From: Circinaria calcarea
Taxonomy: Eukaryota
Reading direction: 5' to 3'
Length of the DNA: 32,200 bases
NCBI GenBank assembly: GCA_051942165.1
Contig: JAVECS010000039.1
Location: 1-32,200 of the forward strand
In this document: positions 1-22,215 of the stretch, one piece after another
How the letters are laid out: every line of letters starts with the position of its first letter
How positions within the stretch are numbered: position 1 is the first letter of the stretch
Notes under the pieces: model-generated
What the model was told of the DNA's origin: nothing
Databases searched by the model: none
The model's input: only the letters and a program-made list of their open reading frames with translations
Translations under genes and position numbers: made by a program

Positions 1-772
1 GGGTAGTCTAGAAATCTGCCGATGGAGTTTTTTTTTTATGCTCGGAGGTTGTTAGGTAGACCCGGAATAACAGTGCTCCCAGCCAATCAATACCTCGTCT
101 GCAAGGCCCTCCCTTGGCCTGGTTTACATAGCTCCATTGTACATCCACGGAGCTATGTTATACTAGTAGACCTAGTGTGGCCAATACGAGAACACAGTTT
201 CTACCCACCGTGCTTTACAGTATCAGGCTTAGCTTATCGGCGCCGTGCTCCCGAGCATACTGGTCTACAAGCATATTAGTCGTTAGTGAGCTTGATAAAA
301 CAGGGTATATTTTGAGTACAGCGACCAATTAAATCCCCGTATTGGCAGATCGCACTAACGACTAATATGCTTGTAGACCAGTAACAGATTTCTAACAAAA
401 AAAAACAAAACCACTCAATTTAGTAAAATCTTGTAAGAGGTTTGTTATGCACGGGAGCCCGGCACCGATACCCTAAACTTAATATCGTAGAGTCTAAGTG
501 GCAGGGAAGCGTTGCTAGCTTAGAAATATACCCTCGTATTGGTCAGAAAAAGCCAGCTAGTGCAGCATAGCTCCGTTGTAGAATAGTGATGGAGCTACGT
601 AAAGCTAGGCCGGGGGCTCTTTCCACGCAGGGTATGTATTGGCTGGGACCACAGTTATTCCGCGCCTAGTTTTACATTACACTAACATAACAGAGTTTGC
701 TAAATGCCCTAATTCTTATTCCTTTCTTCTCTCATCTCTTCGCCTCTATCTATCTTTAGTTGCGGCGAAATC

Positions 773-3449
773 ATGGTGCAATCCGAAGCCAACATGCCCG
801 AGGATGGCCCATCGATTATTGCGACCTGCCAGCAGACCCGCTTCCATATCTCGGATGATTCGCGCACGTCCGAGGCAAGCCCCAAAGTTCACTTCACAGC
901 CGCAATCCGTAACGTCGTGTCCAGATTTCTGTGCAGCAGCTCACTGTCTCCGTACTCCCCATCAACAGCAGCACTGCCTCTGTTAAAACCAAGGCTAAAG
1001 CTGCTGCCAAGACTCTAGACATTGTCACCGATGCCGATCTGAAGCTCAAGCCGGGCGTTCACTACGGCCTACTGGGCCGCAACGGCTCTGGTAAATCGAG
1101 TATGTTTAATGCTTTCTACCCTTATGCGCCTCGACTTACCTTGCACGAGCTCTCCTTCGGGCACTTGCGACCAAGATCATTCCCGGCATTCCATACTCCA
1201 CTCGGATATCTCTTCTCCAGCAGACGGCCGCTGATGGCGAAGCCGCAAGCGTACCGTCTGCCGACAACAAAGTCTTAAACAAATCCGCCTTACAGTTCAT
1301 TCGTGAGGGTGATGCAGATAGAAACGAGCTGCAGGCAGAATTGAATGGTAAGCAACAGCCTATCAAAGCTCTTCTTTACATCTAGCACATGCTTCGCTCC
1401 CACCTGGGGCCTTACCGTCCTAGCCTAGGCAGCATTCTCTAGTCTACGCCAGCGCCTCGCTGATGGTAGAAGAACTATCTCGTGGCGAAAATGATGTTGA
1501 TGGCGAAGGATGGGCCCTGCTACGAGCCTACCGGCAACTCGAGTATAATCGCATGCGCCGACGACTCGCCGAGCTCCAGAGGAACTCCGCGTTGCGGAGT
1601 GGAGCTAGGGGCTTGCAAGCGCGTAGGGAGCTGCTAGCCTTTGAGAAGCAGGTTGAAGTGGCCAAAGAGAGGTATGGAAGAGAGAAGCGTGTCGATAATA
1701 AATGCGGTCAAAGGGCTGATATAAGAAACAGAATAGGCAGCGTGGAGCCTCCGCTAGACTCAGCAGAATGCCAAAAGGAACTACTTCGAGCTTCACAACT
1801 GATGGTCGATATTCAAGCCGAGCTGGATGAGGTGAGATCTACTTCAAGATCACATGATCTACGCAATACTACTGGCAAAGATTGACGGTCCCAGCGGCGA
1901 TTGGTCGACTTGGAGGCCCGAGCATTGGATGTGCTCCGCTGTTTAGGGTTCAGCGAATCGAGAATGCAAACGTCGCTTGGCCAGCTTTCCGGAGGTTGGC
2001 AGATGCGCTGCATCCTTGCCAACGCCCTTCTCCAGGATGCAGATATTATGATCTTGGACGAGCCAACCAACTTCCTTGATCTTCTCGGCATCATCTGGCT
2101 TCAGAAGTACCTCGTTAGCCTTCGCTCGAACTCCCCAAAGACCGTGGTCGTTGTCTCCCACGATCGTGACTTTATTGACCATGTCTGCGAGGAGATTATC
2201 ATACTCAAAGATAAGGCACTCACCTATTTTGACGGAAATCTCACGGCCTATGAGGAGGACATGAATTCGCGCCGGCTAAACCTCACGCGGGTCAAAGAAG
2301 CGCAAGATAAACAGATTGCACATATGGAAAAGACTATTGCTATGAACATCAAGGCCGGAAAGAAGAGTGGTGATGAGAACAAGATGCGCCAGGCCGCGTC
2401 TCGAAAGAAAAGGATTGAAGATCGCTCTGGCATGCAGGTTAATGCCAAAGGTGGCAGATTCAAGTTGTCAAGAGACCATGCGGGTATGTTTCCTAAAAAT
2501 CATCCAACAGCCATGCTTACGCAAGCTAGGCTACCATGACTCGAAGCGCGAAGCGATTGAGATTCCTCCTGAGGAGAGGATGGTTAGTCTGATCCTCCCG
2601 CTCGCACCCGACCTACGATTTCCAGGACCTCTGGTATCGTTCGAGAAGGTCAGCTTCGCATATGGGCCCAAACAGGAACGTGTTCTACACGACATTGACT
2701 TGTCTATTCATATGGGTTCTCGCGTGGGTATAGTAGGTCTCAACGGTTGCGGGAAGTCGACTCTAATCAAGCTTCTCGTCGGAGATTTGCAACCCACTAA
2801 GGGATCCGTGACTCGTCATCCTCGCCTCAAATTCGGGTACTACTCTCAGCTTGCGGTGGAATGGTTACGAGCTGCTGGTATCGCGGAGCCTTCCAGAACT
2901 GCGCTGGGTGCCTTGACAGCTGATGCGGGCGACGACATGAATGAGGGCGACGTGCGTGCTCTGCTCGGTTCATTTGGCTTGACTGGCCGCGTTGCTTCCG
3001 ACGTCCCCATCGCAAAACTATCCGGTGGACAATTGGTGAGCATTATTCCGTCCAGCTTAGCATGACCTCCTCTGCTGACGCCTAGATTAACGGTTCGGCT
3101 TGCCCTTGCTCGCATTGTATGGAGTCATCCTCATCTACTCGTATTAGACGAAATCACCACACATCTTGATTTTTATTCTGTCATTGCACTCGCCAAAGCC
3201 CTCAAAGCATTCAATGGTGCTCTTTTACTAGTGTCGCACGATCGGTTTCTGATCAAGTCCGTAATCGAAGGAAACACGGAGTTACTGGACTTGGACGAAG
3301 AAGACGAGGCTGACGGTAACACGGAAGAAGATGCTGAATTGCACAGGACATTATATTTACTGAAAAAGGGCACTCTGGCTCGCTTGGAGCATGGCGTTCA
3401 GGACTTTGAAGATAGTTTGGAGAAACGGGTTGCGAAATTGAGTTTATAG
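773..3449 (+). CDS. ABC-F family soluble ATPase with two NBDs and no TMD (GCN20/ARB1-related); about 8 exons, possibly splice-defective
   Basis: NBD1: Walker A GRNGSGKS(T), signature LSGGW, Walker B ILDEPTNFLD, H-loop VSHDR. NBD2: GLNGCGKST, LSGGQ, VLDEITTHLD, VSHDR. The ORF pieces (773, 931, 1463, 1901, 2367, 3231) join through short introns with GTATGT/GTAAGC/GTGAGA/GTGAGC donors. Intron 1 appears to be GC-AG (875-924). The last intron (3036-3092) lacks an in-phase AG. Confidence 0.88.
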
Positions 3450-3801
3450 CCTCAACTAAATAAAGAAGGTCCATATATAAAAAAGTATTATAATAAATTA
3501 AGGCTATAATAAAATAATTAAAGAACCGAGCTTAAAATCACGGTCCATTGTAAGGATCCTTTACGAATAGTATAGTGATCTTACGAATAAGGGTCGGTAA
3601 ACTGTGTGATAATGTGCTCAATTGGTTCGCATAGCGTATGAATTATTGCTAAAGAATTCTGGTGTAACGCTTCGCGAGGAAAACCTTTCTCGCTAAGCCA
3701 ACAGCTCGTGACCTCGGTGTATAGTTCACCCGTAGGGTTCGTAGGGGTCCTCTACCAGAGGTCCTTACACTCACACCCATCAAATTTTAACTCCAAGCGT
3801 C

Positions 3802-4660
3802 ATACCAAACTTTCAAGCAATTCTAATAGAGCGAGGAACGACTAGTACAATCTATCAATTGAGCATATCTATCGTCCTGAAAATTGCTCGTCGAGGAGTC
3901 GATGGAGAAGACGACCATGCCAATAAGCAAAAGACATTCGAATTCCTCGAAAAGCACCCACCGATTCCTCATTGAATCCGATGGTTTTATCAGGAGAAGC
4001 ACTTGACATTCCTTAACTTGGCCTCTAACGGGAGTCTTGTAATGTTGCTTAATGAGCACCAGTTGCTGGACAACACAAAACGTCCATCGTTGGATGCGAT
4101 AACTTTTTCAGGCTTTTGTTGGATTAGAACGGCTCGGATTGGTACACGGCGACATTCGGCCTGGCAACATACTCTTCGATGACCAGTGGAATTTGGTACT
4201 TAGTGACCTCAATAGGTCCAATCGAATTGGCCAAATACTAATAGCTGTATCGGAACCGTTTGGACGGCTGCTGGGCAAGAAAGATGGTGATGACGCTGGA
4301 ACATACGGTAAAGCTGGATCTCGCACCGAGACATTCGCTATTGGATCCATATACTACACTGTCCTACGTGGGTACGAACCTTATCAATTAGAGCACTCAG
4401 ATAGGGATCGTTATCTCATTATAGGCGAGAAGCTCCAAAATAAAGAGATTCCTTCTCTCGGGGACTTTACGAAAGACGGCATCATTCTCAAGTGTTGGCA
4501 TGGGCAATACGAATCGGCAAAAGCACTCTGGGCAGAATTCAAGGATGGTAGTGGACTGAATACTCCTTAAATGAATAAGGAGCAGTGGCTGGCTACACGT
4601 CGATCAGAGTGTGCAGAACTTGCTCAAAGTAGTGACATAGAAAGATTAGATAGGTACTAG
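3802..4660 (+). pseudogene. Degenerate Ser/Thr protein kinase-like gene
   Basis: Manual translation from ATA at 3802 gives a Gly-loop-like IERGTTSTIY and a VLK lysine. It is then broken by an in-frame TGA, a frameshift near 4070 and a TAA. The catalytic loop HGDIRPGN, a DFG-position SDLN and ETFAIGS lie in ORF 4139-4570, and a short tail runs past the TAA at 4568-4570. Confidence 0.8.
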
Positions 4661-5206
4661 TTACCATTAGTATGATCCTTGTGGCGTTGCTCTATGAAAT
4701 AATTATCACGTCTGCGCTTAAAGTCGAGTTCTCAAAAATACCGACTTCGTACGACTTGCTATTAATGCACGTCATCCGTACTGATGATGAAAAATTTACT
4801 GTTTCTTAAGCGTAAAACAGTAAATTACATGTCTTGCTAATATTAAATGGATTGATACAATTCATTCTAGCTTTTTAAAAGCTTTCAAATGATCCCTTAA
4901 AGGTTCCAGCAAACACTATGAGGATAAAAGCTATCGTCTGCCCAGTCATCTTTGCGCTAGTATAAATTCGGTTAAAGGGCTTCGCTTGGAGCTGTCGAAA
5001 CGCAAAGCACTGGTTCCGAGAGTGCCAGGGGCGATATTTTCGGTTAAACTTTTATCCTCGTCGCTTTCTGGTTGACCTGTGCGTGCTGTGTTTACATCAC
5101 AAGTTCCCCGCTAATAATTCTTTCTGCATCCCCAATACCACCGTTGACTGTCAGTATTAGTATTGAAGCTGGTGTACGTTATGCTTATTTGACTGTACCA
5201 ACCAGC

Positions 5207-7426
5207 ATGTCCGATGAACAAGCTTCAGAGCTAGCAATCCTTAGGGAGTGTCTGAGGCAAGCTGAACGGAAAGCAGAGGCAGAACGACAACGAGCAGAGG
5301 AAGCAGACCGGCGCACGGAGGTGGAACGACAACGAGCAGATGAAACGAACAAGCGCATTCAGGCAACAACTTTGGAGGAATGTCTACATGCCTGCCACCG
5401 ATACCTCCACAACGCGCTTTCCGTTGAGACGGACAAACTCCTGACGACCAAAGGCTTCACAAACCCTAAGAACAAATTTTATCCAACTCTTTTACGTCCT
5501 TGGGAGGATTTTCCTGAACTCCAATCCTCGGTTTTTTACGAAGCGTACAAATTTTTCCATCCACCTGAACAGCCACCGGTACGGTGTCTTAACTCGGTTC
5601 ATTATCTTGAAGAACTCGGCCAGAATCTCAGCCAGCGCAAGCTTGCCAGTGAAGCCGACCTGGAATCATTTGAACGAACAACGGTGGAAGGTATGGTGAC
5701 TCGCATCATCGGTCAGCTGTGTGCGATGGACCCTGCCCGCACGCAGTTTCAGCTTGGACAAGGAGTTACATTTGATAATCATACCAATTCTCTCAGCGAT
5801 GCAGCAGAAGAAGTCCAACAGTACCTTCATATTCGAACTCCTCGAGCAAGTCCACAGCCATCGAGCTCATCCTCATCCGGTTCTGATTCAAAGCCAACAA
5901 GGACTCGAGCTGATCAGTTCTGTGTTTTCAGAAACTCGGACGGGATTCGCAAACTACTCCTCGTCGTTGAGTACAAACCACCACACAAACTCTCCGTCGG
6001 TAACCTTCAAGCAGGGTTTCGACCGATGAACATCGAGGATATACTTATGGCAGCAACCATACCAAATGAGTTAGAGGCCAGACTACAATACAATGCTGAT
6101 AAGCTAGCTGCTGCAGTGGTCACGCAGACATTTCACTACATGGTTGAAAATGGGTTAGAGTTCAGCTACATCACAACTGGAGAGGCGTTTGTTTTCCTTC
6201 ACGTCCAAAAGGAAGATCCAACCACATTATACTATCATCTAGCCGTGCCTGGTGACGAGGTCAGCAATGAAGAGCCTGAGTTTTCGATTCCGCAGATAGC
6301 CATCAGCCAGGTCATGAGCCTTTGCCTGATAGCTTTTCAGTCAGAGCAGAGAAATCATCGCTGGCGACGCGACGCCAAAAAGAAGTTAAAGAAGTATATA
6401 GTTGACTATGAGGCGATCCTTCGGCAGATTCCCGAGACGGAACGAAAACTTTCGCCAGCCTCTACTTATAAAGGACGGAAAAATGCGAACCCCAGGGAAT
6501 CACCGTATCCCACAAGGCGGAAGGCACAAGAGGAAAAGGCAAGAGCGAGAACAAGAACAAGCTGTGATTTGGATGAGCTGAGACTTGGCGACGATGGACA
6601 ATCGGATCCAGACACACCTAGTAAACAACGAAAGGGCAGGCTACAACTTGTCAGTCAGACAAAAAGCAACGAAGACACGGCGGATAAGCGCAGCAACACC
6701 GACAACCACCCAGGGAGCAAGGGCAGACAACGTCAGTACTGCACACAAGAATGTTTATTAGGCCTTGTGCGGGGAATGGTGCTTGACAAACGATGTCCAA
6801 ACGTGATGTTACACTCTGGACATACCAACTGGCACGCGATCGATGGACAGGAGTTTATGAGACTAGTTCGAAGCCAGCTCAAGGATGATCTCGATAACAA
6901 CTGCGAGCCTCTGGGATTGCAGGGGGCACGAGGGGCCTTATTTAAGCTCACTTTGGCATCGCACGGCTATGTCTTTGTTGGTAAAGGAACGGTACGGGCC
7001 TTTGTGCCTGCCTTGTCGTGGGAAGGTTCGATGTATCAGAAGCTAAGGAGGCTTCAAGGAACAGCAGTGCCGGTATATCTTGGGAACATTCAACTGGCTC
7101 ACCGGTACTACCTTGACGTTGATGTTAGAATATCGCATATGCTTTTGATGTCGTGGGCAGGAGCTATAGTGGAGGAGACGATCGACGGTCAAGAGATTCG
7201 GCGCACAGTAGAAGAAGTACAGGCTGAAGGAGTTGATCAGGGAGATGTTCGGATGGCGAACCTTTTATGGAATCCAGAAAGGAAACGAGTAATGCTTATT
7301 GACTTTGAGCGGGCGAAGTATATCAGTTACGACAAGCCAAGTCTAGCCAAGGATGAAAGAGTCCTACAAGAGATGTCACCGAATAAGAAACGAAAACGAG
7401 TTGAGTTCATGAAGGAAAGATATTAA
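5207..7426 (+). CDS. Spok: Spok (spore killer) family protein, 739 aa: coiled coil, PD-(D/E)XK-like nuclease, Cys cluster, kinase
   Basis: Intronless ORF from ATG 5207. It has an N-terminal heptad repeat (AERKAEAERQRAEEADRRTEVERQRADE) followed by TTLEECLHACH...LRPWEDF. The nuclease core is RADQFCVFR...VVEYKPPHKL (D 5912, E-Y-K 5969-5977). The cluster CTQEC-x13-C-x5-H-x6-H spans 6740-6835. Kinase motifs are GARGALFK, GYVFVGKG, VPVYLG, QGDVRMANLL and IDFERA (D 7301). Domain order and size match what is described for Podospora SPOK proteins. Confidence 0.85.
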   Translation: MSDEQASELAILRECLRQAERKAEAERQRAEEADRRTEVERQRADETNKRIQATTLEECLHACHRYLHNALSVETDKLLTTKGFTNPKNKFYPTLLRPWEDFPELQSSVFYEAYKFFHPPEQPPVRCLNSVHYLEELGQNLSQRKLASEADLESFERTTVEGMVTRIIGQLCAMDPARTQFQLGQGVTFDNHTNSLSDAAEEVQQYLHIRTPRASPQPSSSSSSGSDSKPTRTRADQFCVFRNSDGIRKLLLVVEYKPPHKLSVGNLQAGFRPMNIEDILMAATIPNELEARLQYNADKLAAAVVTQTFHYMVENGLEFSYITTGEAFVFLHVQKEDPTTLYYHLAVPGDEVSNEEPEFSIPQIAISQVMSLCLIAFQSEQRNHRWRRDAKKKLKKYIVDYEAILRQIPETERKLSPASTYKGRKNANPRESPYPTRRKAQEEKARARTRTSCDLDELRLGDDGQSDPDTPSKQRKGRLQLVSQTKSNEDTADKRSNTDNHPGSKGRQRQYCTQECLLGLVRGMVLDKRCPNVMLHSGHTNWHAIDGQEFMRLVRSQLKDDLDNNCEPLGLQGARGALFKLTLASHGYVFVGKGTVRAFVPALSWEGSMYQKLRRLQGTAVPVYLGNIQLAHRYYLDVDVRISHMLLMSWAGAIVEETIDGQEIRRTVEEVQAEGVDQGDVRMANLLWNPERKRVMLIDFERAKYISYDKPSLAKDERVLQEMSPNKKRKRVEFMKERY

Positions 7427-8294
7427 CTTCGGTTCAATGAGCAGTAGGTAGCTGAATCACGTGAAAACATTCTCTTTAATCTCGGTTCATCTGCTAAGTT
7501 GACGGCCTCATAACAAGGAACAGCCTCTTCACAAGGCGCGGCATTATAGCTTATTTCATGCGAAAGCTCGTTGGAGAATGAGGGCCAGAAGTGTTGGGTA
7601 TGTAAAGAGCTCCGCTGGAGGGTGTTCTGCACGATATTGGCAATGCCTGCAATCATCTCAGTGTATATCTCCGTAACAATATTCGTGAGAATCCTATTAA
7701 TGTTTTAAGTTCTTATGCATGAGGAGCTTAGAGTGCACATAATTAAGGGGCGGATCACCTATAAATACCGGCACATACCCACGTGACACCTTCTACAGGG
7801 CAGGCAAATGCCAAAGCCAGATGGGAACGGATGAGAAGAAGCGATGGCGGTACTGCAACCGAGAACGTTTGGTATGCCGCTAAGGCGCACCGGCTCCACG
7901 GCGGCGTCTTGGTAGCTACCGAAAGACAACGCCTATTTGCTCTACCTTTAGGCTGCTTTCCATGCTCGCTGGCCCGCCCCGGTCATCCATCATAAACGTG
8001 TTCCAATGGGGTGAAGTATAAGGCTTTGTGTCAAAGGAGAGGTACGAGTGCTATCGCTGCTGAAAGCAGATCCAGTCCTTCGGGCTCCTACACGTGTTCG
8101 TTATATTACGAAGCGTTGAGCATGCTTGTAAGAGAACCTATTATACTTATATTAGCAGTGAAGCCTTGGCCATTACCATAGCTGTTTGAGTACTGTTATA
8201 GTAGAGCAAGGCACAACAAACTTGATGAGGTACAGGACGGTATTATGGTAGAATCAATTAGTTTATCCCAGATGTGCTATGCGAACCGAGACCT

Positions 8295-9269
8295 TTAGAA
8301 TTCCTTTATAGCATTGGTTTGCACCCGAGCCTCACGTTCCTGCTGTATAAGGTCCGTTATCGCCTTGTCTAACCCTTCCATCACTTCTTGAAGCTCCTTA
8401 TTTTGATCTTGTACTTCTTTAACGGCTGTGACCACCTTCTTAAGCGTAACTCCAAGGTCTTTCACCTGCTTCCTAACTATTGCCCCTGTGCGTCTCACCC
8501 GTTGCTGTATAATCTGGCATTCGTTGCTCGCGTCTTTAACTTCCGTCAATAGCTCCCTTGCCTTTTTAGCTCGAGCATGATCATCATTCTTCATTAGTCG
8601 TCTCACTAATTGAAGATCTGGACTCTCTTCATTGGCTTCAGACCGTTTGCGTTTACGTTTGCTCTGGCGCCGCCCGCCCTCTGGCCTCGAACTGTCGTTT
8701 TGTCGGCGTCGTTTAACCGGTTGCTTGGATGGGTTGCTGTGTGCAGCTATCGGTGAAGAAGTACATCCCTCGTGCAGAGACATCTTCGTGGGCGATGTAG
8801 CTGTTGCGTTAGTAGGTTCTTGACCACTTGCCGTACGAACATCGTCGTCGGTCCCCTCTCTTTCACTAAACGGGGAGTCTCTTCCGAGCTGGTATTGTGA
8901 GATTCATCGATTACAATTGGATTATCTGGGCTCCAGTCAGTAGGGCTACGGTTGTAAGGCTTGTAACATACTCGCACCGCCGTGGCTTTGAGTTCTCTCC
9001 TGCGTATAAATGGCCGCAACGTGTTCTGATTCCTTTGCAGGCTCAGAAGTCGTTCTGGAAGACGGCGGCACAGAAGGATGCTTTAGATCAGTTGACTGTA
9101 ATGCAGGGCTGACAATCTTCGGCTCCTGAGATAAGTCGATTACCGGAAGCTTTCCTGCATCGGCTTCTGAAACCTCTGAGTTTTCCCCGCGGGATTGACT
9201 TATACCAAGTGTGGAGAGGACCTCCGAGCCAAGCGTTTGCTCGGGAATTTGATTCTGTGGCCCGTCCAT
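8295..9269 (-). CDS. Hypothetical protein with a disordered N-terminus, basic NLS-like patches and a C-terminal coiled coil; may be frameshifted
   Basis: ORF 8946-9269 splices through a GTATGT...CTGAC...CAG intron into NPIVIDESH. It then needs a frame change near 8870 (or a second intron; a CTAAC...CAG acceptor is present near 8805) to reach ORF 8295-8783, which has KRRRQ/KRKRKR and the heptad-rich VKEVQDQNKELQEVMEGLDKAITDL. Confidence 0.5.
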
Positions 9270-11171
9270 GGTTGCTCTGACAAAGCCAATGGAAAGGTGG
9301 TAAGAAAGAAGTTATCGGGAGACGTCCAGGCTCTTAAAGTATGAGCCCGTTGCGAATCTGTGGCGGCGATCTCATGATACCTTAGCGCTGCTAATAGCAA
9401 GGCTCCTCATCGCTTGGGTGGAATGAGACATTGTTGTAGTTGTCCCGAAATCCCTTCTGCTTCACTCTTGTAGGCTGCTCGCCTGCGTTTACCTTAGAGC
9501 TGTAGATGGCCACTGGCAATGCTCAAATGTTCGAAGGTTCCAATGCAAGCATACAGTCTTGCTACTTGGCCTATGTTGGAGAGAGGCACATTATTCGAAT
9601 CAAGAAATGTACGGCTACCCAGATCGTGTATGACTTGATGGATCGTGAAAACATTTTAGTGGATAACGCAAGAGGAGAAGAAAGACAAGAGGCCGGAAAG
9701 AATGAAGGGCTCCCGAGAAACCTGGAAAGTCGAGGCCAACGGAGGTGTAAGGATGCTCTGCTGTCTTCTTGTAAGCCACCCAACTCTGTAGCTGCAATCC
9801 TTACACTCTATGGATCGCGATCGACAAATCAAACCCTATTTCCTCGGCTCCTACTGGTCTAGGCTAAGCCAACTCCGAACGACTTTGCCACAAGGCGTAA
9901 ACTGGTGTTTCCAAGAACCTAAATGTGGCCATCTTTCTGCCTCATTAAAGAGGCTATTCCGCTAAGATACTATGACGCTGTAGAGACGTGACTGTAGATA
10001 GGCACTTGTGGACGCTGAAGTCCATCGCTCTGTTCAAGATGGACGTGGAACATCGCTAGCCAGGTTCTAGCTCGAAGCTTCCAATGTTTGGAACCATTCA
10101 GCAACCGCGGGGAACGTCTTTGTCAAGCATGCGGTCTTGCTGCCTTGGAACCTTGAGTAGAGCGGTGCATAACTTGAAAACCTCCAGCAGAGCAAGGTCA
10201 GGAAAAACGCAAGGGGTGGAGAACAGAGGGATAGAGGCTAGAGAAAGGGAGAGGAATCGCAGAGACCCCGAAAATCGAGAAGCCAAGGGGGGACGTAAGG
10301 ACCTTTGCTCGCCTACATCGTAAGGCATTTTCTATGATAGTTGCATATGCCTTGGGTGTAGTATGTCTAGGAGCAATGACCACAGGGGAAATGCCTTGCG
10401 ATGGCAGGCTCTCCACAAAACAGGTAAGAAAGACACCGCCAAACTTTAGCGCTATCTTACTGTGCACGAATGGCCACACACGGTAGCCGATTCGGTCTCC
10501 AAGCCTCTTTATCCTTGTTATGTCCACCCCTTTTCCGGAGAAGGATTGTCAGTTGAAGAGCGAGCATCGGACTAAGCCGGACAGCAGGCCTTGATGAGCG
10601 GTTTCGAAGTGAACTGTAAGGCTTCCCTCTTCGCTAAGGATGGAAAAGGCAAAAGCACCGCTACAGTTGAGCGTAGGATCGAACGCGAAGGCAGCCTGGG
10701 CTGCGAGGAACGGATGACGCAGTGCTAGCTGAACCTGGATCAACACAAGAGCCAGAAATAGAGGAGAGGAGCGAAGACAAAGGAAGGAAATGACGGGGGA
10801 GTGGACGTGACTCTGAAAGCGCGGACACCAGAGCGGCCAACACAAAATGAAAATATCAAGCGGAAAATGAAGCCAGGAGGCCGAGGGAGTAAGCCAGTTC
10901 TTATGTTTTGCGGGAAAAGCAGCACGACGTACCAAAAGCTCGTAGGTAAAGGAAATTATCGAGAAGTGAGATGCCTTGTAGTCAAGGTCAACCTTCTAGT
11001 ATCGCCGCTTTAGCTGTAGATATGAGCTTGAGGCCATTTCTGGATGCTTTGCAGCTTGATTAGGCCTCAATCGTCGATAAGCCACAAAAGGAGAAACGTA
11101 ATAGTTACTCCAGAGCGAGGCTCGGGCAGCTGCTCACCCATTTCACCCTTTTCAGACGACAGCCAAATACT

Positions 11172-12261
11172 ATGAACGCACACATACATATATCGAGTTG
11201 GGATTGGCCCAACTGCCTTGAGTTCTGCTGTGGCCCAAAACAGCTGATACAGCATATCATCATTTCTCATTTGACGGAAGAGACGCCGGTGCCTTCGAGG
11301 AACTTTTCGAAGAAAAGGAAACGACTGCTGGCGGATACAGACGACCAAGAGATTGATCGATAAACCATGAAAGAGGTTGTATTTATCTGCTCATTTCCAC
11401 AATGCGGACACACGAAGGAATACAGATCTAAATCTAACCTGAGACGACATTACTTTGACCGTAAGTGATAACATTTAGACACCTGGACATGGCGAATGGC
11501 TGTCGAACTCAGATTATTCGTTTTTTAGAAAGAAAATAATCGATGCCCATACTGTCTCACGCCGAAAGATGATTTGGGAGCTCTTTCACGACATTGGGAT
11601 ACATCTTGCAGAAGCAAGGTCCGAGAGAATGGTGTGTTTGACCCAGACGAACAGCTTCGACTCGACTCCTTCAAAAAGAAACAAGAGGTGGGCATGCTTT
11701 TGACAAGAGCTTTAAATGTGGCATCAAATGCACCACGCAAACAGGCTCGTCAGGGTCAGGCGCATACTTCAGAAAATTCGGGTAGCGATGATGAAGACGA
11801 TAGACGTATCTACTAGCATTCTGACCAATCGGCCATTCTGACCACCCGGCCCGGGCTTAGTGGGTGCTTAGTGGGTGCTTAGTGGGTACCCCCTAAAATT
11901 TCTTCGGGGCATAGAAGCGAATCCACTAGTATGCAAGTAGAAGCCATAAAGGCTAGGCTGCCAGCCACTAATGCTCGGCCCGGGTGGTCAGAATGGCCGA
12001 TTGGTCAGAATGCTAGTAGATACGTCTATCTTGTTCCACGCGAAACCTTGCCCGACAACGTCCATGCCATCCACAAAGCCAAACCTAGACTCTGGTAGTA
12101 AGGAAGCTGCGAACGTTGCTTCAAGTATGTCTCTAGGTTCTAATAAGCTATCTAACTTCTGGTCTAATGAGGTAACTTTGGATAGTCTCCAACTCGATAT
12201 CTACCTTCTCCCAAATATCAAGGACTTCGACAAGCAATGCGAGCCAGGCGATACACGCTGA
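11172..12261 (+). pseudogene. C2H2/C2HC zinc-finger protein pseudogene interrupted by a MITE; fragments probably continue to about 13065
   Basis: A KKRKR NLS is followed by an in-frame TAA (11361), then finger 1, CSFPQC-x14-HYFD|H, which spans a GTAAGT intron at 11461-11512. After a frameshift/TAG in the poly-T at 11521-11528 comes finger 2, CPYC-x12-H-x4-C. Removing the MITE fuses ORF 11574 (..SDDEDD) in frame to ORF 11971 (ILFHAKPC..). Confidence 0.65.
11803..12026. mobile_element. 224-bp MITE of the Tc1/mariner-pogo type, with perfect 47-bp TIRs and a TA target-site duplication
   Basis: 11803-11849 (GACGTATCTACTAGCATTCTGACCAATCGGCCATTCTGACCACCCGG) is the exact reverse complement of 11980-12026. 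TA flanks both ends (11801-11802 and 12027-12028). Each TIR contains CATTCTGACCA twice, and the interior has GCTTAGTGGGT three times. Confidence 0.93.
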
Positions 12262-14880
12262 TCTCACTGCCCGTCTCCTGCTTAGCGACGATTTAGTCAT
12301 CCCCTCCATCGCACCCGCAACTGCAAATACACCAGACCATTCCTCAGCGTTGGGCTATAAGAGACATGTATCATTGCCTCACAGTACCATTCTTAACTAT
12401 ACTGCGACCGCGACTGTACAAGATTCAAGAGGTAGAGTTGTTCCTCGCTCGTGCCCCCCCTTTTTGGTGCAAGGGCTCATGATATAATGGCAGATACCTC
12501 TAGTAATTTTAGACTTATTACGGACGGAACTCAAACCAGGAACGAACAAGGAACTTCGAATGCCAATGAGAGCTCAACGTCCCTACCCTCCTCCGACCTT
12601 TCACAACGACGTTCACAAGGCAAGCATTTCTGAAATTGGCAATCATACGCTGTAGCTTACAAAACTTGCAGAAATACACCTCTCCTATGATGCAGCAATT
12701 CAAGCTAACAGAAACGAACACCGAGAAACACTACTTCCTTCGTTATGTGGCACGAGAAATGACATTCAAGAGACGTCAAATGCAGAGCAAGGTAAGTACA
12801 CAAGCTTGTGGTGCGTCTCTAATAAGGGCTAAGTTCTAGGAACGTGAATCGTAATCGTGTTGAATCCAACCGTGACACGGCATCTGGGGATCTGGAGCAA
12901 AGCATGTGGAGTCAACCACAACAACCTGAGTTTATGGGCTATGATGTGATAGATTTTGCATCATTAAGGGACCCCTATTATGCCATGACCAGCCATAACC
13001 TTTCAATGTTCACCTCTCTCGATCTGGAAGCGTCCCCTTCGAACTGGAACATTCCGCCGGAGTGATAACAAGAAGGTCCAAGGCAGGGCTGACATCGACT
13101 ACCCCTGTTATATGATTCTTCTAACCTGTGAGCAGCAGCCCAGAAGGATTTGGGTCGTCGCTGATAACACGGATCGGTATCAAATCCGCCCACACGCCTT
13201 CCTTAACGTGGACACGAGCGGGTCGAGGTCCAGGTATTCGCAGGATTGAATAGCCATACTCTTTTGCATCCATCTACTTTCTTAGCATAATCTGGTATTG
13301 CAATGAGAACACTATACCTTGGTCCGAATTCCTAATGCCTCAAATAGGCTGTCAAGTCTAGCCCGCCTATCCGCCTCCACGCATCTGCCTATGTCGCCCT
13401 TTGGTTCCATCTTGAATTCCGCGGTTTCAAGCCATGTGCCGAGGTCGTTTATAATAGCAGAAACCCCCTGCAGCTGACTAGGCCCACCAGAGGCCATTTG
13501 CCTGGCTCAACAATGCTTCAAAACTCAAGGAGCGGAGAACGAGTGTGCTCTAGCGAGGATCGATGCTAGTCGTATAAGGAGGGTTTTCGGATCTGCACTA
13601 TGTATTGATCAGCCTTTGATAATATAACGTTTTGTCCGAAAACATGAGGAGGAACCAACGGTTTCTGCGCAGGCCCGTCATTGGCCAAAACAGGGTGGAA
13701 ACATATATCTCCAGACTTAGCAAAGTCAACCAGACGCTACAACCTTTAATTATGTATATGCGAGACCTAGGATTCGTAGCTAGGTACAAGAAGTCCAGAT
13801 ATTTAGATTTTGCTGTTGGAATAACCTCATCCACATATTTTGGCCTAAGGCATCATTTAGAGTATTAAATGGAGATTTTCCTTGACATCGTTATTATAGA
13901 GTCTGCTATGAAGGCGACTTGCACTACCAGTAACTCGAAGCAGGCTTTGAGAGAAGATACAACTTATTGGTCAGACGTTTCAATAGAAAAGGGAAGTGCT
14001 GTTCATCAATTATTATTTTCATCTTCTATATAATGTAGAACTATGTATAAACTGTTATTACTTAGCTATCCTCTAGTCCAGCCCGCCATGATTTAATCCA
14101 GCGGGTAGCATATATTTCAAGCGCAGAGTATAAGCCGATCCCGCAGAACGTTTTTATCAACGGTGTCTTTCGACAGGTCGAAGTCTGGTAGCTTTGTCTG
14201 GCCGGATTTCGAGACTGATACACCGTAAGCAGAAAGGCAGATTGCCAAGTACGTGGAATGCTGCGGAATGAAGACTTGTGTGTGCGGTTTGAGCCTGCTT
14301 CAGAGCGCTGTCTTTTTCAACGCAGTGGTGACAGGCCTCGAATGCAAGACATGAGAAAAGGATGATGAGATAAGAAGGTAAAGCAAAGGGGAGAAGGTCG
14401 GCGCAGCCCTGGACAGAATAGCTCTGCGAATGGAGGTGATGTATGAAGAGAGCTGGGGTACCTTGACTGGCTTGATTGATACTGTATCAGAGTACCATGG
14501 GTTCGGCGTATCGATGTGCAGCACCAATTAGCGAAGTTTATTATTAGTGGGGGTGCTCAAGCGTAGCGAAGAATGCCACGAATAGATCCCGTGGTGTTCT
14601 CCGACTGCTAAGCCATAAAAATGCCTTAGGCAAAAACTTGCTTGCCATGGAGGGGTGCTAACCCAGGGCAACTGAACGACGGAGCCATCATTCTCCAACT
14701 AAGTTTTTAGGTAAGACGCATCACTACGTTGCTTCCTTCATCCTCACTCCACGCGGTGGAGCACTCTCTGCCTCAGGAGAACCAAGATCTGGAGGACTGT
14801 GGCGTGGTAAATCTGCTACCTGCCTCGTAACCTGCTCCTTTCCTCGACGGACCCTGCGCAATAACTGACTGAGACTTGCA

Positions 14881-15268
14881 ATGGCTACTCCTGGAGAGGC
14901 TGTACCATTGAGCGAAGAAGAACATTATGCAGTCACTGAGTGCATGAAATCGTTGGACGAGGCGCCACTACAAGGACAATCAGACTCAGAAGTTGACCTA
15001 AGTGGGCTAGACGGTGTTGTCCAAAAATTTGTTCAGAAATTCGATTCATGGAGGAAGGCATATGTTCCCAATCTACCCATGGACATATGCTGAACTACGT
15101 TTGCAGCTCGGCGGCAAAGAATTCGAGGTTTACAGCTCTTCGGTTCACCAAATCCATCATCCTGACTGTGCCAAAAACGGTGCTCTTGATTCCTACCGCT
15201 ATCACCTCCAACAACCCTGCCATTGGAAAACAATCACTGGCCATTGGGTCATATATATATCTTACTGA
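14881..15268 (+). pseudogene. Possible frameshifted hypothetical gene fragment
   Basis: ATG-initiated ORF 14881-15093 has protein-like composition and overlaps ORF 15014-15268 (WTYAELRLQLGGKEFEV..), which suggests one frameshifted gene. No family recognised. Confidence 0.3.
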
Positions 15269-15292
15269 GGATGTATTGGTGGAACCAGGATT

Positions 15293-17379
15293 TCATTGCC
15301 TCGCGTTTCTAGCTGAGTAGCTTTGCCCTGGAAAATCTTCATCAGAAATGGCATTACCCCAGATGTCGACCTGGTCTGGCACAGGAGGGCTTACACTATC
15401 CGCCTGGCTTCCGACATTATTCGGGAAGGTGAGCAGCATAGCATTTTCCCATGGATCGATAGGAGTCGCGAAGGAGATCGGCATAGCGCTTTCCCACGGA
15501 TCGATTTGATTTGGGAAGGAGATCAGAGCGGCATTTTTCCAGGGGTTGATAAGAGAGGGAACATAGTTCAGTGATTTGTCAGCCGCTTGATATGGCACGA
15601 GTCCTATGCCATGTTTATGTGTTAATTCATTCCAACGATTTCAGAGTTACTTACCTGTTTAGATGCGGCTGATCAGTGATCAAATCCGTAGAGGTTGATG
15701 AGCATTAACTGATTGAAGTCGTACTCGCACTGTAGTTGTTTTGGGTTTGTGGGTGATCAGGGAACTCTGGCCGTACTCCTAATGATGAATGATGACCAGG
15801 GCCTAGCGGGCTAGACTGAGGATCAGGATCCGGATTCTCCAACGCAGAGTCTCCCACCGAATTAGCTGACATGGTCACAGGGCCTGGCTGTGGGATTGAA
15901 TCAAGCTGAGCTCTAGCTTATGCAGATTGTGCTGCGCCCTCTGGAGATTCTGCAGGGCGGTCGAATTCAGCAACGGCGACAGCGGCAAGGATGTCAAATT
16001 GCGACGCATCCGATACAACCGGGCTATGGCAGCGCCTAGAGCTTGTGGTAGTCCTTGCCTGGTAACGGCTCCATTGATCTAAAAGCAATAACAACGATAC
16101 ATGACACTATATGTTTCGTGGGGCTTCTAGACAGGCGAAAGAGCTCCCCAGCGCCTAGAGCAAAACATACCTGTCTATAACTGTTCAGAAACTCAGCCGA
16201 ATCACGTTATTGGGGCAGTTCATCGCATACTTAAAGTCCAATGTGCTGCTAATATATGCGGCAGGATGAAACATATACATATCAACGAAGGTGGGAGGCG
16301 CCGACCTCCCAAGGTTGTGGATAACGCCTTCTATCACCTTTCGCATCCTCTCTTTAGAATATGATACAATTTGGCTCAGAGAGAAATTCATCACTGGCAG
16401 GGGTCAGTAGCTGTAATAATGTCATAGAGGGTCAATAGAGGAAGTAGACTTACAGGATAAGGCTTCGTATACCAGAGCAGCTCGAGGTCCCCATTCCCAC
16501 CAGAGCCCATCAACAATCGAGTTTATAGCCGAGGCTGCAAGTACCCACCGAGTTCTAGTGGAAGGGCTTCTTCCATGAATGTCGCAGGCAGTCGGCGCGA
16601 GGTCACGGAACTTGCGAAGGCATGGAGCAACAATACGGCACTTCCAAGAGATCTGGTAAGCGCTTCTTAGGACTCTTGACGCCTGTTCCCACAGAATAGT
16701 CTCTAGGCATAAGGACCGATCCTTGATGTTATATTCACTGCACGCGAAGCGGGCGTTGAAATCCATAGGGACAGTCGGTGGGGCAAGATTGACTTCCGGG
16801 GACGACCACATCAGTGCATGTCGGTTGAGTGCTCTTTCCTTCCTTCGTGGCACTAGACAGCTTGTCTAGCCCCTTCTTGATCTTGTTCGTGAGACTTTTA
16901 ACAGCCTCATCTTCCTCGACTCCCACCTCATTGCCCCTTGTATCATTACCAACGCTACTGCCACTATCATCGTCCGCGCCCTCATCATTGGCATCGCCAT
17001 TGCTGCCTTCATTATTATAGCACTCCTGGTCGTTATCATCATCTCCATTGAGGTTGCGCTCGTTATAGACGCTGTGGGACGTGTTCAATCTTCGGCGTTT
17101 GAGTCGATTCGCAGGTCTGTCACTGGCATCCTCCACACCTGAACTTCCTAGCACCTTCACCTCAATTTCTGCGTCGTTTTCAAACTTTATGTATCCAAGG
17201 AGAGCCAATTCAGCCTTCTTCGCGCAGGATACATCGGGGCAACCGGAAACCGGAGGATCGTAAGTGCGGCTGGAACTTGTCAGTTGAAGGCCAGGAAAGG
17301 AGCTTATTAAAACATACCAACATTTGCTTGAGAAATCCCGTTGAGTAGGTTGGTAGTAAACATTATATATCCGTTGCAC
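15293..17379 (-). pseudogene. Multi-exon hypothetical gene (NLS, acidic tract, globular domain, C-terminal 15-aa repeats), apparently frameshifted
   Basis: Collinear minus-strand ORFs 16735-17379 (LKRRRL, D/N-rich), 16422-16853 (CLETILWEQA..WGPRAALVYEAL), 16185-16394 (FHPAAYISS) and 15293-15598. A GTAAGT donor near 16450 and a CTGAC..CAG acceptor near 16400 link two of them. A frame change is needed near 16840-16850. Attaching 15293-15598 to this gene is inferred. Confidence 0.5.
15413..15550 (-). repeat. 45-bp (15-aa) coding tandem repeat, 3 copies
   Basis: Translates as INPWKNAALISFPNQ / IDPWESAMPISFATP / IDPWENAMLLTFPNN. On the + strand TTCCCA(T/C)GGATCGAT recurs about 45 bp apart. Confidence 0.7.
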
Positions 17380-17788
17380 AGCATCAAGGAGTTCGGAAGA
17401 GTTATCAGCCCAAAGGGCCGTTTGGCAACACCAGGTGTAGCGAAATCGACACGAAAAGAACGTTTAATTTGGAATTACTTTGATGCCAAACGGCGTGATA
17501 AATACCTGAATCACTGCCCAGTGCTGGTCATGCTGCACAGCAAAGTGAATGCGTGTCGTCCGATCCTTGGAGACTCGGTGGCCCGGACGTCGTGCAATCA
17601 CTCCTGATGCAGATATCGCTTTTTGCTGGTCCTTGTAATGAGATATAGAACGAGTGATGGCTGCAAAGCTTGCTTTGGTCCATTTCACAGATGGGGTACA
17701 GTTGCAAGTGAAATGGAGTAAGAAGGAATATCATAAGTTTGTGTTGTGTAGGAGAGATGGGGAAGCTGAACTCGACGAGGTCGGTTTT

Positions 17789-17833
17789 TGCAGGGGGGCA
17801 CTCGCGTTTCCACAATGCGAGTGCCCCCCTGCA
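17789..17833. repeat. Perfect 17-bp GC-rich inverted repeat (hairpin/cruciform) with an 11-nt spacer
   Basis: TGCAGGGGGGCACTCGC (17789-17805) and GCGAGTGCCCCCCTGCA (17817-17833) are exact reverse complements. Confidence 0.85.
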
Positions 17834-18653
17834 GATTCGCGGAACTTGACGAAACAAGCCCCCCACCAATATCTGCCGCACTAGTCCCACAGACATCGCC
17901 TGTTCGATCCAGTAGAGGACAATGATACCATTTATGATCAATTAACACGAAGCCTAATTGTTGGAAGTGTCTCAAGAGTCTGCAGTCTAGAAAGGTGATG
18001 AGGATGGGCGTCCGCACTTCCACCCAGTAGGAGGATATCAACCACTCTCTGGTATCGATGCATGACCATTCGAGCGTGAAGTGTCATTCCAGGCTATCTG
18101 GGTGCAACGCAATAAACGGCTCCCTAAACTGAACATCCAACCTATTGTTGATGGTCTCATGTCGCATGTCTCAAGCCAAGGCACTCTTGAATTGTCTAGA
18201 CAGTCTGTGATTTATGGAAGTTGAACGAGAGCCTCAAGGTCAAGCTATAAAAAGCAATTGTAATCCGTATAAATGCAATGTGCCCTCTTCGCTACCTCCA
18301 AACGTCGCTCCCAGAGAACAATCGCGAAGCTTCATATATGCTGTTTGCTTGATCAAAGCCTGGCAGGTTATGCAATCTGCACCTCGGACACACGGCGCGG
18401 CTCCAATCTTCCAATCCTTCCATCCATCTCCGGTGACTCGACCTCTACTGCATATCAGCAGTTGGGAAGGGGCAGGAGCGGTGGTCAGCTACCCGTCCTT
18501 AGCCCTTCGAGCAATCCAAGACAAACTCGATGGCGGTGTGGATAATAAAACTTTGCCGGAGACGCAGCAGTCAAATCTTTGCGATGACGCGCATCATTTT
18601 GCCGCAAAGGATCCGTCAAACCCCCTCTCCGTTGGTGCTCTTAGCCCCTTCTA

Positions 18654-19999
18654 TACTAATTTACTAGTAAGCGCTATCTTTGTGTACGCGTATTCCAATT
18701 TTCTTCGGGGATTTTCAATTATTTTCATTCAATTAACAACATAATGCCGAAATCATTAAGCAGCGAATTAAGGGCGAATGTACTTTATATGATACAGAAC
18801 GGAATACCTATTAAAAACATATCTAAACATAATCGCATTTCTATACGGCAAGCCCAACAAATGCGATTGAATTACATTCATTGGGGTAGTGTAGTGATGC
18901 CAAGATGTGTTCGAATGGGCCGCCCAAGGTTACTTACTAAGGCAATGGAGGAGGTATGTAAGATACGGAGAATATAAAGCTATTTACTAATAAATTCTAT
19001 AGGGCCTGCTTGATTTTCTCGGCCACCACCCTACTGCATACCTCGATGAAATGGCATACTATATATGGGACCAGTTCGGCGTTGATATTAGCGTTCAATC
19101 CATTTGCCGCATATTGAAGAGGCTGAAATGGTCATGGAAGAAGATATAACATGAACTTTTATATCTAAATTACGTGGAATTACAAGCTAATTCTTCGTTT
19201 ATTTAGGCTCGCCATGAAGCAGCACAACGAAGCCAATTCCTTCGCGACGAATGGAACGTACGTCTTACCGAATGGCTTCCACATCAGCTGGTTTTCCTTG
19301 ACGAAAGCGCTGCCAATGAGCGTACAGCAGACAGGAAGTATGGATGGGCCCCTATTGGCGTTAGGGTATCAGTAACCACGCCATATACACGGTCAGAAAG
19401 ATGGTCTATACTGCCTGCGTATACCATCGATGGATATATAGCGCACGAGGTTTACAAAGGCTCTATTACAACACCTATTTTCAATGACTTCGTTGCTCGC
19501 AGAGTGCTTCCGCTTTGCGGCGACTCTCGACTACAAGAACCTTGCTCAGTATTAGTAGCTGATAATGCCTCAATCCACCGATCACAACAACTTCAGGATA
19601 TGTGCGACAGAGCCCATGTTACCCTAGCAATGCTACCGCCTTATTCGCCGGATTTCAATCCAATTGAGACGTTGTTTGCGGTATTAAAGGCATGGATAAA
19701 GAGGCATCATGTGCTTGCAGCAAGCTATGGCCCAGAAGGAGGCGGATTCATACAATTCCTAAACCACGCAATTGCGGAGCAAAATAATCGAGGTGATCCA
19801 GGAGCTTTATTCCGGGCAGCGGGCATTCAATATTGGAACGTTACGGAGCAGGAATTAGAATATCAATAGCATAGTAGAATCATAGCAATCTACGTGGGTT
19901 TAGGCAGTATTTACATAGAGAAAATATTTAATATTCAACTTTCCCCGACGAAAATTGAGATACGTGTAAATAAAGATAGTATTTACTAATAAATTACTA
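18654..19999 (+). mobile_element. Tc1/IS630-family (DD34E) DNA transposon of about 1.35 kb with degenerate 55-bp TIRs
   Basis: 18657-18711 matches the reverse complement of 19942-19996 at 45/55 positions, and 8 of the 10 mismatches are transitions. The TIRs enclose the transposase. TA at 18652-18653; the right TSD is degenerate, so the exact ends are approximate. Confidence 0.85.
18744..19869 (+). pseudogene. DD34E Tc1-like transposase with 2 introns; intron-2 donor mutated from GT to AT
   Basis: Exons 18744-18953, 19003-19143 and 19207-19869. HTH region with MGRPRLLT and PTAYLDEM; catalytic motifs LVFLDES, VADNASIH and LPPYSPDFNPIE, with 34 residues between D2 and E. Intron 2 starts ATATAA at 19144, so read-through hits TAA. 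Confidence 0.88.
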
Positions 20000-20039
20000 T
20001 GGTACAACTATCCTAGCTAGCGCCTCTCCCTAATCCATG

Positions 20040-21450: not shown

Positions 21451-21670
21451 ATACTGCACTTTAGTATTATCTTAAACTATAAGCATATATTGAATCACGA
21501 CAGCAAGCATCCAATTTGTATATGGAATTGCATGTGGTGTTGGTAGAAAATGTCGGTTAAGGCGGGGTTATGTCGCATTTTTGGGTCACCCGCGTGTTAG
21601 GGCTTGGTTCTCAGAATAGAGAAGTATCAAGGCACAGTGGCTAGCAGCGGTATTAGTTGAATTCCAATCA

Positions 21671-22072
21671 GTCACTGGCACTGACACTGGCACTGATACT
21701 GACACTGACACTGACACTGGCACTGGTAATAATAATAATAATGGCACTGATACTGGCACTGACAGTGACAATGACACTGGCACTAGCACTGGTAATGATA
21801 ATGGCACTAATATTGGCACTGGCACTGGCACTGGTAATAATAATGGCACTGGCACTGGTACTGGCACTGGCACTGGCACTGGTAATGATAATGGCACTAA
21901 TACTGGCACTGGCACTGGCACTGGTAATGATAATAATAATGGCACTGGCACTGGTACTGGCACTGGTAATGACAGTGATAGTGACACTGGTAATGACAGT
22001 GACAGTGACACTGGCACTGACACTGGCACTGGCACTGGCACTGGCACTGGCACTGGCACTGATACTGATAGT
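21671..22072. repeat. Degenerate hexamer satellite (GGCACT)n of about 400 bp with a roughly 90-bp higher-order unit
   Basis: Runs of GGCACT with variants GACACT, GATACT, GGTACT, GGTAAT, GATAAT and GACAGT. The block starting at 21791 recurs at 21881. This explains the low-complexity ORFs (PV)n, (LA)n and (SA)n. Confidence 0.95.
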
Positions 22073-22215
22073 TACTGACATTGTAGTAGTAGCAATTGAA
22101 TTGAATACAATGCGTATATAAAACCGTTCAAGGACCCTACCAACGGTGGCCAGTGTAGCCAGTGTGACCAGTCGCTGGGAACACTCCGTACATTGTTTGT
22201 TTGCCTGTGGCTCAG

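Follow-up and report, generated by a model that had tools for sequence, protein, structure and literature searches.

SPOK proteins of Podospora combine killing and resistance in one protein, and the SPOK family members that have been tested are drivers (Vogan 2019; Grognet 2014). Here we describe a SPOK-family gene from the lichen-forming fungus Circinaria calcarea. It lies at 5207-7426 on the forward strand of the first 32,200 nucleotides of contig JAVECS010000039.1 (assembly GCA_051942165.1). We refer to this whole stretch of 32,200 nucleotides as the window, and positions are counted from its first letter. A preliminary description, made from the letters of the window alone, had presented the gene as an intact, full-length member of the Spok family and as a candidate single-gene toxin-antidote meiotic driver.

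In SPOK3, the PD-(D/E)XK motif spans residues 219-240 and a QxxxY motif lies at 294-298; killing is abolished by K240A (Vogan 2019). Resistance is abolished by C493A/C497A and by C511A or C511S, within a cluster with the published pattern C-x3-C-x13-C-x5-H-x7-H. These cluster mutants are toxic and wild type rescues them (Vogan 2019). The catalytic base of the kinase catalytic loop (subdomain VIb) is D667, 174 residues after the first Cys of the cluster, and the kinase domain ends at approximately residue 700. The D667A mutant is toxic in the absence of wild type, and a kinase-dead allele is rescued in trans by wild type (Vogan 2019). According to an abstract on SPOK1, this protein kills through DNA targeting. 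Podospora Spoks localize to the nucleus (Grognet 2014) and are expressed and active in vegetative cells (Vogan 2019).

By 2014, reports of Spok homologues covered every major class of Pezizomycotina other than Orbiliomycetes and Pezizomycetes (Grognet 2014), and in 2025 they were called widespread (Genetics 2025). The family is cited as InterPro IPR052396, and some Fusarium homologues (FuSpoks) are toxin-antidotes in yeast (Genetics 2025; bioRxiv 2026). An abstract on a spok gene of Fusarium oxysporum states that it limits dispensable-chromosome loss and gives a fitness gain via hyphal fusion. In our literature search, no paper dealt with Spok genes of lichen fungi; Figure 6 of Grognet 2014 and supplementary files could bear on the taxa covered.

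An intact SPOK-family gene

We found that 5207-7426 (forward strand) is one unbroken, intronless open reading frame (ORF). It starts with ATG at 5207, ends with TAA at 7424-7426, and encodes 739 amino acids with zero internal stops; its homologues begin and end at matching places. In an ORF scan of the window, no further ORF of at least 100 amino acids overlapped 4500-8200. The preliminary description had reported this frame, together with a D...EYK core and a C-x3-C-x13-C-x5-H cluster, and all three were recovered as described. D236 sits in DQF, E255-Y-K257 ends with a Lys codon (AAA) at 5975-5977, and the cluster is C512-x3-C516-x13-C530-x5-H536.

The protein carries the precomputed Pfam label PF27653 (PF27653.1), named SPOK2_N in the protein atlas, as do 120/120 of the matches listed. 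A search of 5.8 billion proteins, with 8000 candidates scored, gave 226 matches at E<=1e-3, the best of them 70% identical, and the window protein reached E values of 1e-130 to 0 against hundreds of homologues. Named top matches came from lichen-forming fungi (Lobaria, Xylographa, Varicellaria, Diploschistes and others), then from Helotiales, then from Fusarium and Beauveria at 38-40% identity. The lichen homologues were already present in public databases as hypothetical proteins. With HMMER, a search of 1.84 billion representatives at 50% identity gave 2717 matches at E<=1e-3, 1794 at E<=1e-10 and 831 at E<=1e-30. The SPOK family is thus very large, with 831 clusters (50% identity) at the strictest of these thresholds. 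Judged by homology, the window protein is a further member of this already known family, one of many hundreds of such ascomycete genes.

We used homologues from Polytolypa hystricis (AJ80_09569), F. oxysporum, Beauveria bassiana and Metarhizium rileyi as proxies for the Podospora proteins. All four species are named as carriers of Spoks of clade II, to which the Podospora genes belong (Vogan 2019). Podospora proteins themselves were not found by name among the matches listed for three seeds (the window protein, the Beauveria homologue and the Polytolypa homologue), and none of 133 new HMMER representatives combined the published length of SPOK1 with D680, the SPOK1 residue that corresponds to D667 of SPOK3. 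An alignment of 22 sequences was collinear from M1 to the KKRKR tail, with the four proxies at 38-40% identity to the window protein. Positions invariant in this alignment include E255, Y256, K257, C512, C516, C530, H536, H543, K593, E606, D680, N685, D699, F700 and R702. The residues predicted to serve killing (D236, E255 and K257) and resistance (C512, C516, C530, H536, K593, E606, D680, N685 and D699) are all present. In a larger alignment of 118 rows, all 15 key residues that we checked were found in the window protein and likewise in 97 of the rows. The end-to-end collinearity with clade-II homologues and the SPOK2_N label bear out the claim of a full-length Spok-family gene, and on this evidence 5207-7426 is almost certainly a genuine and intact one.

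A chance ORF, or the misreading of a different type of gene, for example a normal protein kinase preceded by an unrelated N-terminus, would be one alternative. It draws on the local Pfam scan of the protein, which gave only sub-threshold matches (Kdo at E 0.017, APH and coiled-coil-like); the Pfam copy used there held no PF27653 model, and the SPOK2_N assignment is the precomputed label. However, the full-length homologues at E = 0, the collinear alignment, the SPOK2_N label and the nuclease-like fold described below refute this alternative, and we consider it extremely improbable.

We also placed the protein in a FastTree phylogeny of the 118 rows. It fell in a clade of 48 rows (support 99), in which 10/10 named members are lichen fungi. 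This clade was apart from a Leotiomycete clade and from a Sordariomycete clade holding the Polytolypa, F. oxysporum, Beauveria and Metarhizium proteins. The rows were chosen by similarity to three queries and are a biased sample; the tree was built by a fast method and contains several long branches that were flagged.

Predicted folds of the two halves

AlphaFold2 models of the protein were confident. The full-length model, built on the 118-row alignment, had a predicted local distance difference test score (pLDDT) of 84.5 and a predicted template modeling score (pTM) of 0.81, with low confidence only in two linkers and the tail. A model of residues 52-420 had a pLDDT of 87.6 and a pTM of 0.87.

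We found that the N-terminal half is predicted to fold like PD-(D/E)XK restriction nucleases. A VIA search of 48,161 chains with residues 52-420, which does not depend on Foldseek, gave as its top match the type IIG restriction endonuclease BpuSI (3s1s; Z 9.4, root-mean-square deviation 3.7, 155 residues aligned). DrdV (7lo5, Z 7.2), a Vibrio vulnificus HsdR fragment (3h1t, Z 6.6), SgrAI (Z 6.3), a putative restriction-endonuclease domain protein (9y1l, Z 6.0) and EcoR124I HsdR (2w00, Z 6.0) were also found. By title, 19 of the best 50 entries listed are nucleases or resolvases, and about a dozen further listed entries are, we presume, nucleases as well. Two mitoribosomal chains also ranked high (Z 8.6 and 7.0). 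In the model, the consecutive strands 237-244 and 247-256 carry D236 and E255/K257. The canonical PD-(D/E)XK arrangement has the D and the (D/E)xK on two consecutive strands. The nuclease assignment draws its weight from the dominance of one superfamily in the VIA list and from this placement of D and ExK. The V. vulnificus HsdR structure is also the HHpred match reported for the Podospora proteins (Vogan 2019).

The predicted nuclease-like domain, presumably the toxin or killing part, spans residues 234-413 (5906-6445). D236 (5912-5914), the first acidic residue of the motif, is D in 114/118 aligned homologues. In E255-Y256-K257 (5969-5977), E is found in 114/118 and K in 115/118, and K257 (5975-5977) is the likely counterpart of SPOK3 K240. 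A QxxxY motif, Q307-T-F-H-Y311, follows at 6125-6139 (Q in 118/118, Y in 101/118).

The C-terminal part is predicted to fold like a small kinase. The matches that Foldseek listed for the full model were all kinases (among them CK2, Rio2, the kinase domain of a lanthipeptide synthetase, and JAK2) at E of approximately 1e-5 and probability 1.00. A profile search of solved structures also gave kinases only, including Cdc7, CK2 and a Bud32-type kinase; neither a solved SPOK nor a nuclease was found in this sequence search. The kinase domain, the predicted antidote or resistance part, spans residues 545-715 (6839-7351), consistent with these matches and with the weak Kdo match. K593 (6983-6985; 118/118) is, we take it, the beta-3 ATP-binding Lys. 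Directly before the kinase is the Cys/His cluster C512-x3-C516-x13-C530-x5-H536-x6-H543 (6740-6835), each of its five residues present in 118/118.

The remaining parts of the protein are as follows. Residues 1-51 (5207-5359) form a long charged helix that corresponds to the "coiled-coil" repeats of variable length in Spoks. Residues 2-51 were modeled as a single long helix, 59% of positions 1-51 are E, R, K, D or Q, and hydrophobic residues occupy 7/51. In the 22-sequence alignment this stretch pairs with variable-length E/R/A/Q repeats of the homologues, and two imperfect 42-nt (14-codon) direct repeats, 76% identical to each other, lie within it at 5259-5342. The preliminary description had called this region a coiled coil. 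The long charged helix and the repeats agree with that, but they do not settle between a coiled coil, which is plausible, and a single charged helix. Domain 1 (residues 52-204; 5360-5818) is helical (pLDDT >90) and packs with the nuclease fold; the two are aligned together by VIA, over model residues 8-329 of the fragment 52-420. A Ser/Pro-rich linker of low confidence (residues 205-233; 5819-5905; pLDDT <50 at 219-233) precedes the nuclease, and a basic disordered linker (residues 414-505; 6446-6721; pLDDT <50 at 449-505) follows it.

The resistance residue is probably D680

The preliminary description had proposed to check whether the D of DFE (7301) maps to a known catalytic residue. Two lines of evidence point to D680 instead. 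In a HMMER alignment to a solved Bud32-type kinase (8k20_B), QGDVRMAN of the window protein stands opposite HGDLTTSN, and LIDFERA stands opposite LIDFGLS. The spacing from the first Cys of the cluster fits as well. It is 168 residues to the catalytic-loop Asp in the window and lichen proteins and 183-200 in 15 clade-II proxies, compared with the 174 residues between the first Cys and D667 of SPOK3. To the DFE Asp it is 187 residues in the window and lichen proteins and 202-219 in the clade-II proxies (14 measurable; one pattern mis-match). The published end of the kinase at approximately residue 700 also fits a DFERA about 19 residues past D667.

Based on the alignment and the spacing we infer that the counterpart of SPOK3 D667 is D680 (7244-7246), not D699. 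D680 belongs to the catalytic loop D680-V-R-M-A-N685 (7244-7261; D in 118/118, N in 117/118). D699, in D699-F-E-R-A (7301-7315; GAC at 7301-7303; D in 118/118), aligns with the DFG of 8k20_B and is, by that alignment, the DFG-type metal-binding Asp. The practical correction is that a resistance test should target D680 rather than D699. D680 and D699 are both intact, and therefore the earlier conclusion that both putative active sites look intact is unaffected; it agrees with the 15/15 key residues and with the PD-(D/E)XK-like and kinase folds. The phrase "a kinase ending in DFERA" was loosely worded. DFERA is present, but 36 more residues follow it, including a nuclear-localization-signal-like basic patch, KKRKR (residues 727-731; 7385-7399), in the low-confidence tail. 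N726 next to it is conserved in at least 90% of rows.

Conservation and close alleles

We compared how often the two halves are lost among homologues. The 118 homologues are a small sample, chosen beforehand by length. The nuclease triad D/E/K was altered or deleted in 5/118 rows (P0006, P0038, P0072, P0101 and P0230). In contrast, ten Cys/His-cluster and kinase residues were unchanged in 117/118 rows, the single exception being N685H. More frequent loss of the toxin than of the antidote matches the prediction for a toxin-antidote.

At one metagenome locus that carries a Spok relative (L004:8709-12943), there is an apparently broken Spok-like copy with 45% identity to the window protein; the longest of its ATG-initiated ORFs is 346 amino acids and ends just past the catalytic loop. 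Approximately 1 kb downstream is an ORF of 392 amino acids in which ankyrin-like repeats are fused to a SPOK Cys cluster and kinase, with no nuclease domain. Its cluster and kinase part shares 59% identity with window residues 503-731, and it may be an antidote-only derivative. Three further loci (L001, L002 and L003, around 10001-10744 / 628-1371) were listed with this one.

We found close alleles of the gene in public sequencing runs. Contigs approximately 89-99% alike together cover 5087-7749 in 4/4 runs compared, from four studies (two metagenomes from moss, a metatranscriptome from soil, and a fourth run whose RNA origin is a guess). The highest share of sampled words in any sequencing run was 0.12. 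Contigs of the metatranscriptome library cover the 3' half of the gene, which is not proof of transcription. Of 166 differences, 40 were listed, and the following counts are therefore partial. In the coding sequence, 12/25 listed differences are synonymous. Within residues 313-700 there are 11 synonymous and 7 non-synonymous differences, and the codon for D699 differs only synonymously. In tail residues 705-737 all listed differences are non-synonymous, one of them an earlier stop (E737*). The close alleles also carry a compensating +1/-1 indel pair at 5830/5835.

Past 7749, approximately 325 bp after the stop codon, one contig carries on with 75 letters that do not match the window, which hints at a different downstream flank in that sample. 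Over the flanks (1-5086 and 7750-20000), only pieces of approximately 40-60 nt were covered in the four runs; such holes prove nothing and were not used as evidence of mobility.

These data bear on the possibility that the gene is an open but dead copy, with catalytic residues intact and killing lost by other substitutions. Such a copy would be resistance-only or inert, and decaying. The model for it is the Spok2 allele of P. anserina strain A, in which killing is weakened by non-catalytic mutations near the active site (Vogan 2019). Homologues are often pseudogenes (Grognet 2014), and the broken copy at the metagenome locus and the triad losses in 5/118 homologues are in line with this possibility. 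However, 739 codons without a stop, 15/15 key residues kept and two confident AlphaFold2 models speak against it. So do the listed differences to alleles approximately 95% alike, among which synonymous changes outnumber non-synonymous ones in the folded domains (11 to 7), and the metatranscriptome contigs. We consider a dead copy quite improbable.

Genomic surroundings

Upstream of the gene is an ABC-F type gene with several exons at approximately 600-3450 (forward strand). Directly upstream of the Spok gene is a small, fragmentary kinase-like ORF at 3826-4567 (forward strand; core ORF 4103-4567) with HGDIRPGN...LSDLNRS and a below-cut-off Pkinase match (E 8e-5). Its N-terminal part is seemingly in other frames, as in an intron-bearing gene or a pseudogene. 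The core ORF gave the next best match in the window to the hidden Markov model (HMM) of the family (E 0.01) and is unrelated to Spok (BLASTP E 0.059).

Approximately 11 kb downstream of the Spok gene are without a recognizable domain. An ORF at 8298-8903 (reverse strand) gave no family match. A 29-nt similarity between 6736-6764 and 7850-7878 was taken as chance. A 64-nt inverted repeat at 11793-12036, 94% complementary with arms 116 nt apart, has no recognizable genes around it. Beyond this, 11 kb downstream of the gene, is a Tc1/mariner-like transposase at 18660-19866 (forward strand) in two ORFs (HTH_23 E 0.0011; DDE_3 E 6e-29), the only recognizable transposon in the window. A pair of 44-nt inverted repeats lies at 20076-20119 and 20648-20691.

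Further downstream, a tandem array at 21631-22139 has alternating 12- and 18-nt steps and 23 overlapping register copies; ORFs of 150-196 amino acids are open across it on both strands in several frames, with no family match. The downstream part of the window also holds pfkB-like and PIG-V-like pieces and a FunK1-type kinase at 25847-28228 (forward strand; Pkinase_fungal E 1e-68 and 2e-57). The FunK1 gene is in two ORFs split by a stop at 27278-27280, reflecting either a pseudogene or a short intron. A scan for promoters and terminators of bacterial type was uninformative for a fungus.

A candidate toxin-antidote

Taking the results together, the best overall explanation is that this intact SPOK-family gene probably works as a nuclear one-protein toxin-antidote. 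The hedged claim of a candidate toxin-antidote element is supported by the family label, the collinear alignment, the 15/15 residues and both folds. By analogy with Podospora SPOK1, SPOK2 and SPOK3 and with some Fusarium homologues, the PD-(D/E)XK domain would attack or damage DNA, and the Cys cluster and kinase would neutralize the nuclease wherever the gene keeps being expressed. Spores or cell lines losing the gene but inheriting the protein would be killed. The outcome could be spore killing, as in Podospora, or vegetative post-segregational killing or hyphal-fusion competition, as in F. oxysporum. Nuclease activity, kinase activity, toxicity and rescue are what we would predict of the window protein from its relatives. 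We put its toxin-antidote activity at slightly better than even, and think it rather doubtful that this gene drives meiotically in nature.

Several observations weigh against this explanation. Identity to the clade holding the tested Spoks is only 38-40%, and the window protein stands in a separate, lichen-only clade. The final His of the cluster comes at x6 (H543), where the published spacing is x7, and the proposed equivalences of K240 with K257 and of D667 with D680 rest on motifs, the text of the paper and spacing. Foldseek with residues 52-420 gave no significant match (best E 0.079). For models that lack a clear Foldseek match, the best VIA Z is commonly 7-8, and Z 9.4 is only slightly higher. 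Around the gene, the ordinary ABC-F neighbor fits a stable chromosomal site. No Starship captain, tyrosine recombinase or other carrier was recognized in the 32 kb (66 ORFs of at least 90 amino acids against Pfam, the Spok frame aside), and a repeat search found no flanking terminal or long repeats. We found no foreign composition and no signal of repeat-induced point mutation (GC content at third codon positions 0.47 vs 0.43-0.59 in neighbors). The gene is single-copy in the window; neither tblastn nor the family HMM found a second or degenerate Spok in six frames.

An alternative is a SPOK gene with the same biochemistry that causes no meiotic distortion, either because it is fixed and meets no sensitive partners or because it has a host role. 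Such a role could be that of a vegetative "addiction" module stabilizing a chromosome region, or could lie in conspecific competition after hyphal fusion. The adjoining housekeeping-type ABC-F gene, the lack of a recognizable carrier transposon in 32 kb and a composition like that of the neighbors are consistent with this alternative. So is the tree, where homologues from one fungal class mostly stand together (6 label changes vs 24.8 when shuffled), as would fit long residence in the lineage. The F. oxysporum spok and the vegetative activity of Podospora Spoks, both described above, provide precedents. On the other side, the lichen clade is not grouped by genus: the Xylographa opegraphella protein is with Icmadophila and that of X. 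trunciseda is with Sarcosagium, which suggests paralogy, loss or transfer. Moreover, the tested family members are drivers, and fixation in the species would be an assumption. A comparison with 12 metagenome loci holding Spok relatives found no neighbor genes shared with the window. We regard a non-driving gene as unlikely, though clearly less so than a dead copy.

The gene could instead be an active single-gene killer in a lichen-forming fungus, which would make it the first case, in a lichenized lineage, of a spore killer or of vegetative post-segregational killing; we think this unlikely as well. Its clade would then be, with the same reserve, a SPOK clade specific to lichens in which toxin and antidote have stayed together. 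The copies approximately 89-99% alike in moss and soil metagenomes and RNA-type libraries, with the contig that leaves the window sequence, fit a compact, recently moved unit. If the gene is active, the supported range of Spok toxin-antidotes would extend from Sordariomycetes (Podospora, Fusarium) to a distant lichen-dominated clade, and the nuclease/kinase logic would be conserved at approximately 38% identity. It would also be a candidate selfish element for lichen biology; lichen fungi can hardly be crossed in practice, but their asci can be genotyped one by one. At present, the result amounts to a sound annotation that adds one member to a very large family.

Comparison with known systems

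The window protein is most readily compared with Podospora SPOK1, SPOK2, SPOK3 and SPOK4. It shares their order of parts, from a charged repeat helix through domain 1, nuclease, linker, Cys cluster and kinase to a basic tail. Like them, its gene is intronless, and its length is similar (739 amino acids vs 734 for SPOK1; Grognet 2014). Unlike the Podospora genes, it has no Enterprise or Starship context recognized within the 32-kb window. It also differs from the clade-II proxies in having a D-to-K spacing of 21 (22-24 in the proxies, and 24 in 14/15 of them), a shorter kinase region, and a catalytic loop with QGD rather than HKD.

The family label and the conserved residues are shared with the FuSpoks and other clade-II proteins. 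FuSpoks are described as multi-copy and enriched on accessory chromosomes and Starships (Genetics 2025; bioRxiv 2026). In contrast, there is one copy in the window, and it adjoins a housekeeping-type gene.

The two halves of the protein also resemble more distant systems. The nuclease half is like the nuclease domains of BpuSI, DrdV and HsdR in its predicted fold and in having D and ExK on consecutive strands. It differs from them in sequence (7-16% identity) and is without methylase, helicase and specificity parts. The kinase half is like the Bud32, Rio2 and Kdo/WaaP kinases in its xGDxxxxN catalytic loop, DF(G/E) motif and short C-lobe, with both sequence and fold matches. Unlike these kinases, which it matches in Pfam only below the curated cut-offs, it forms one protein with a Cys cluster and a nuclease.

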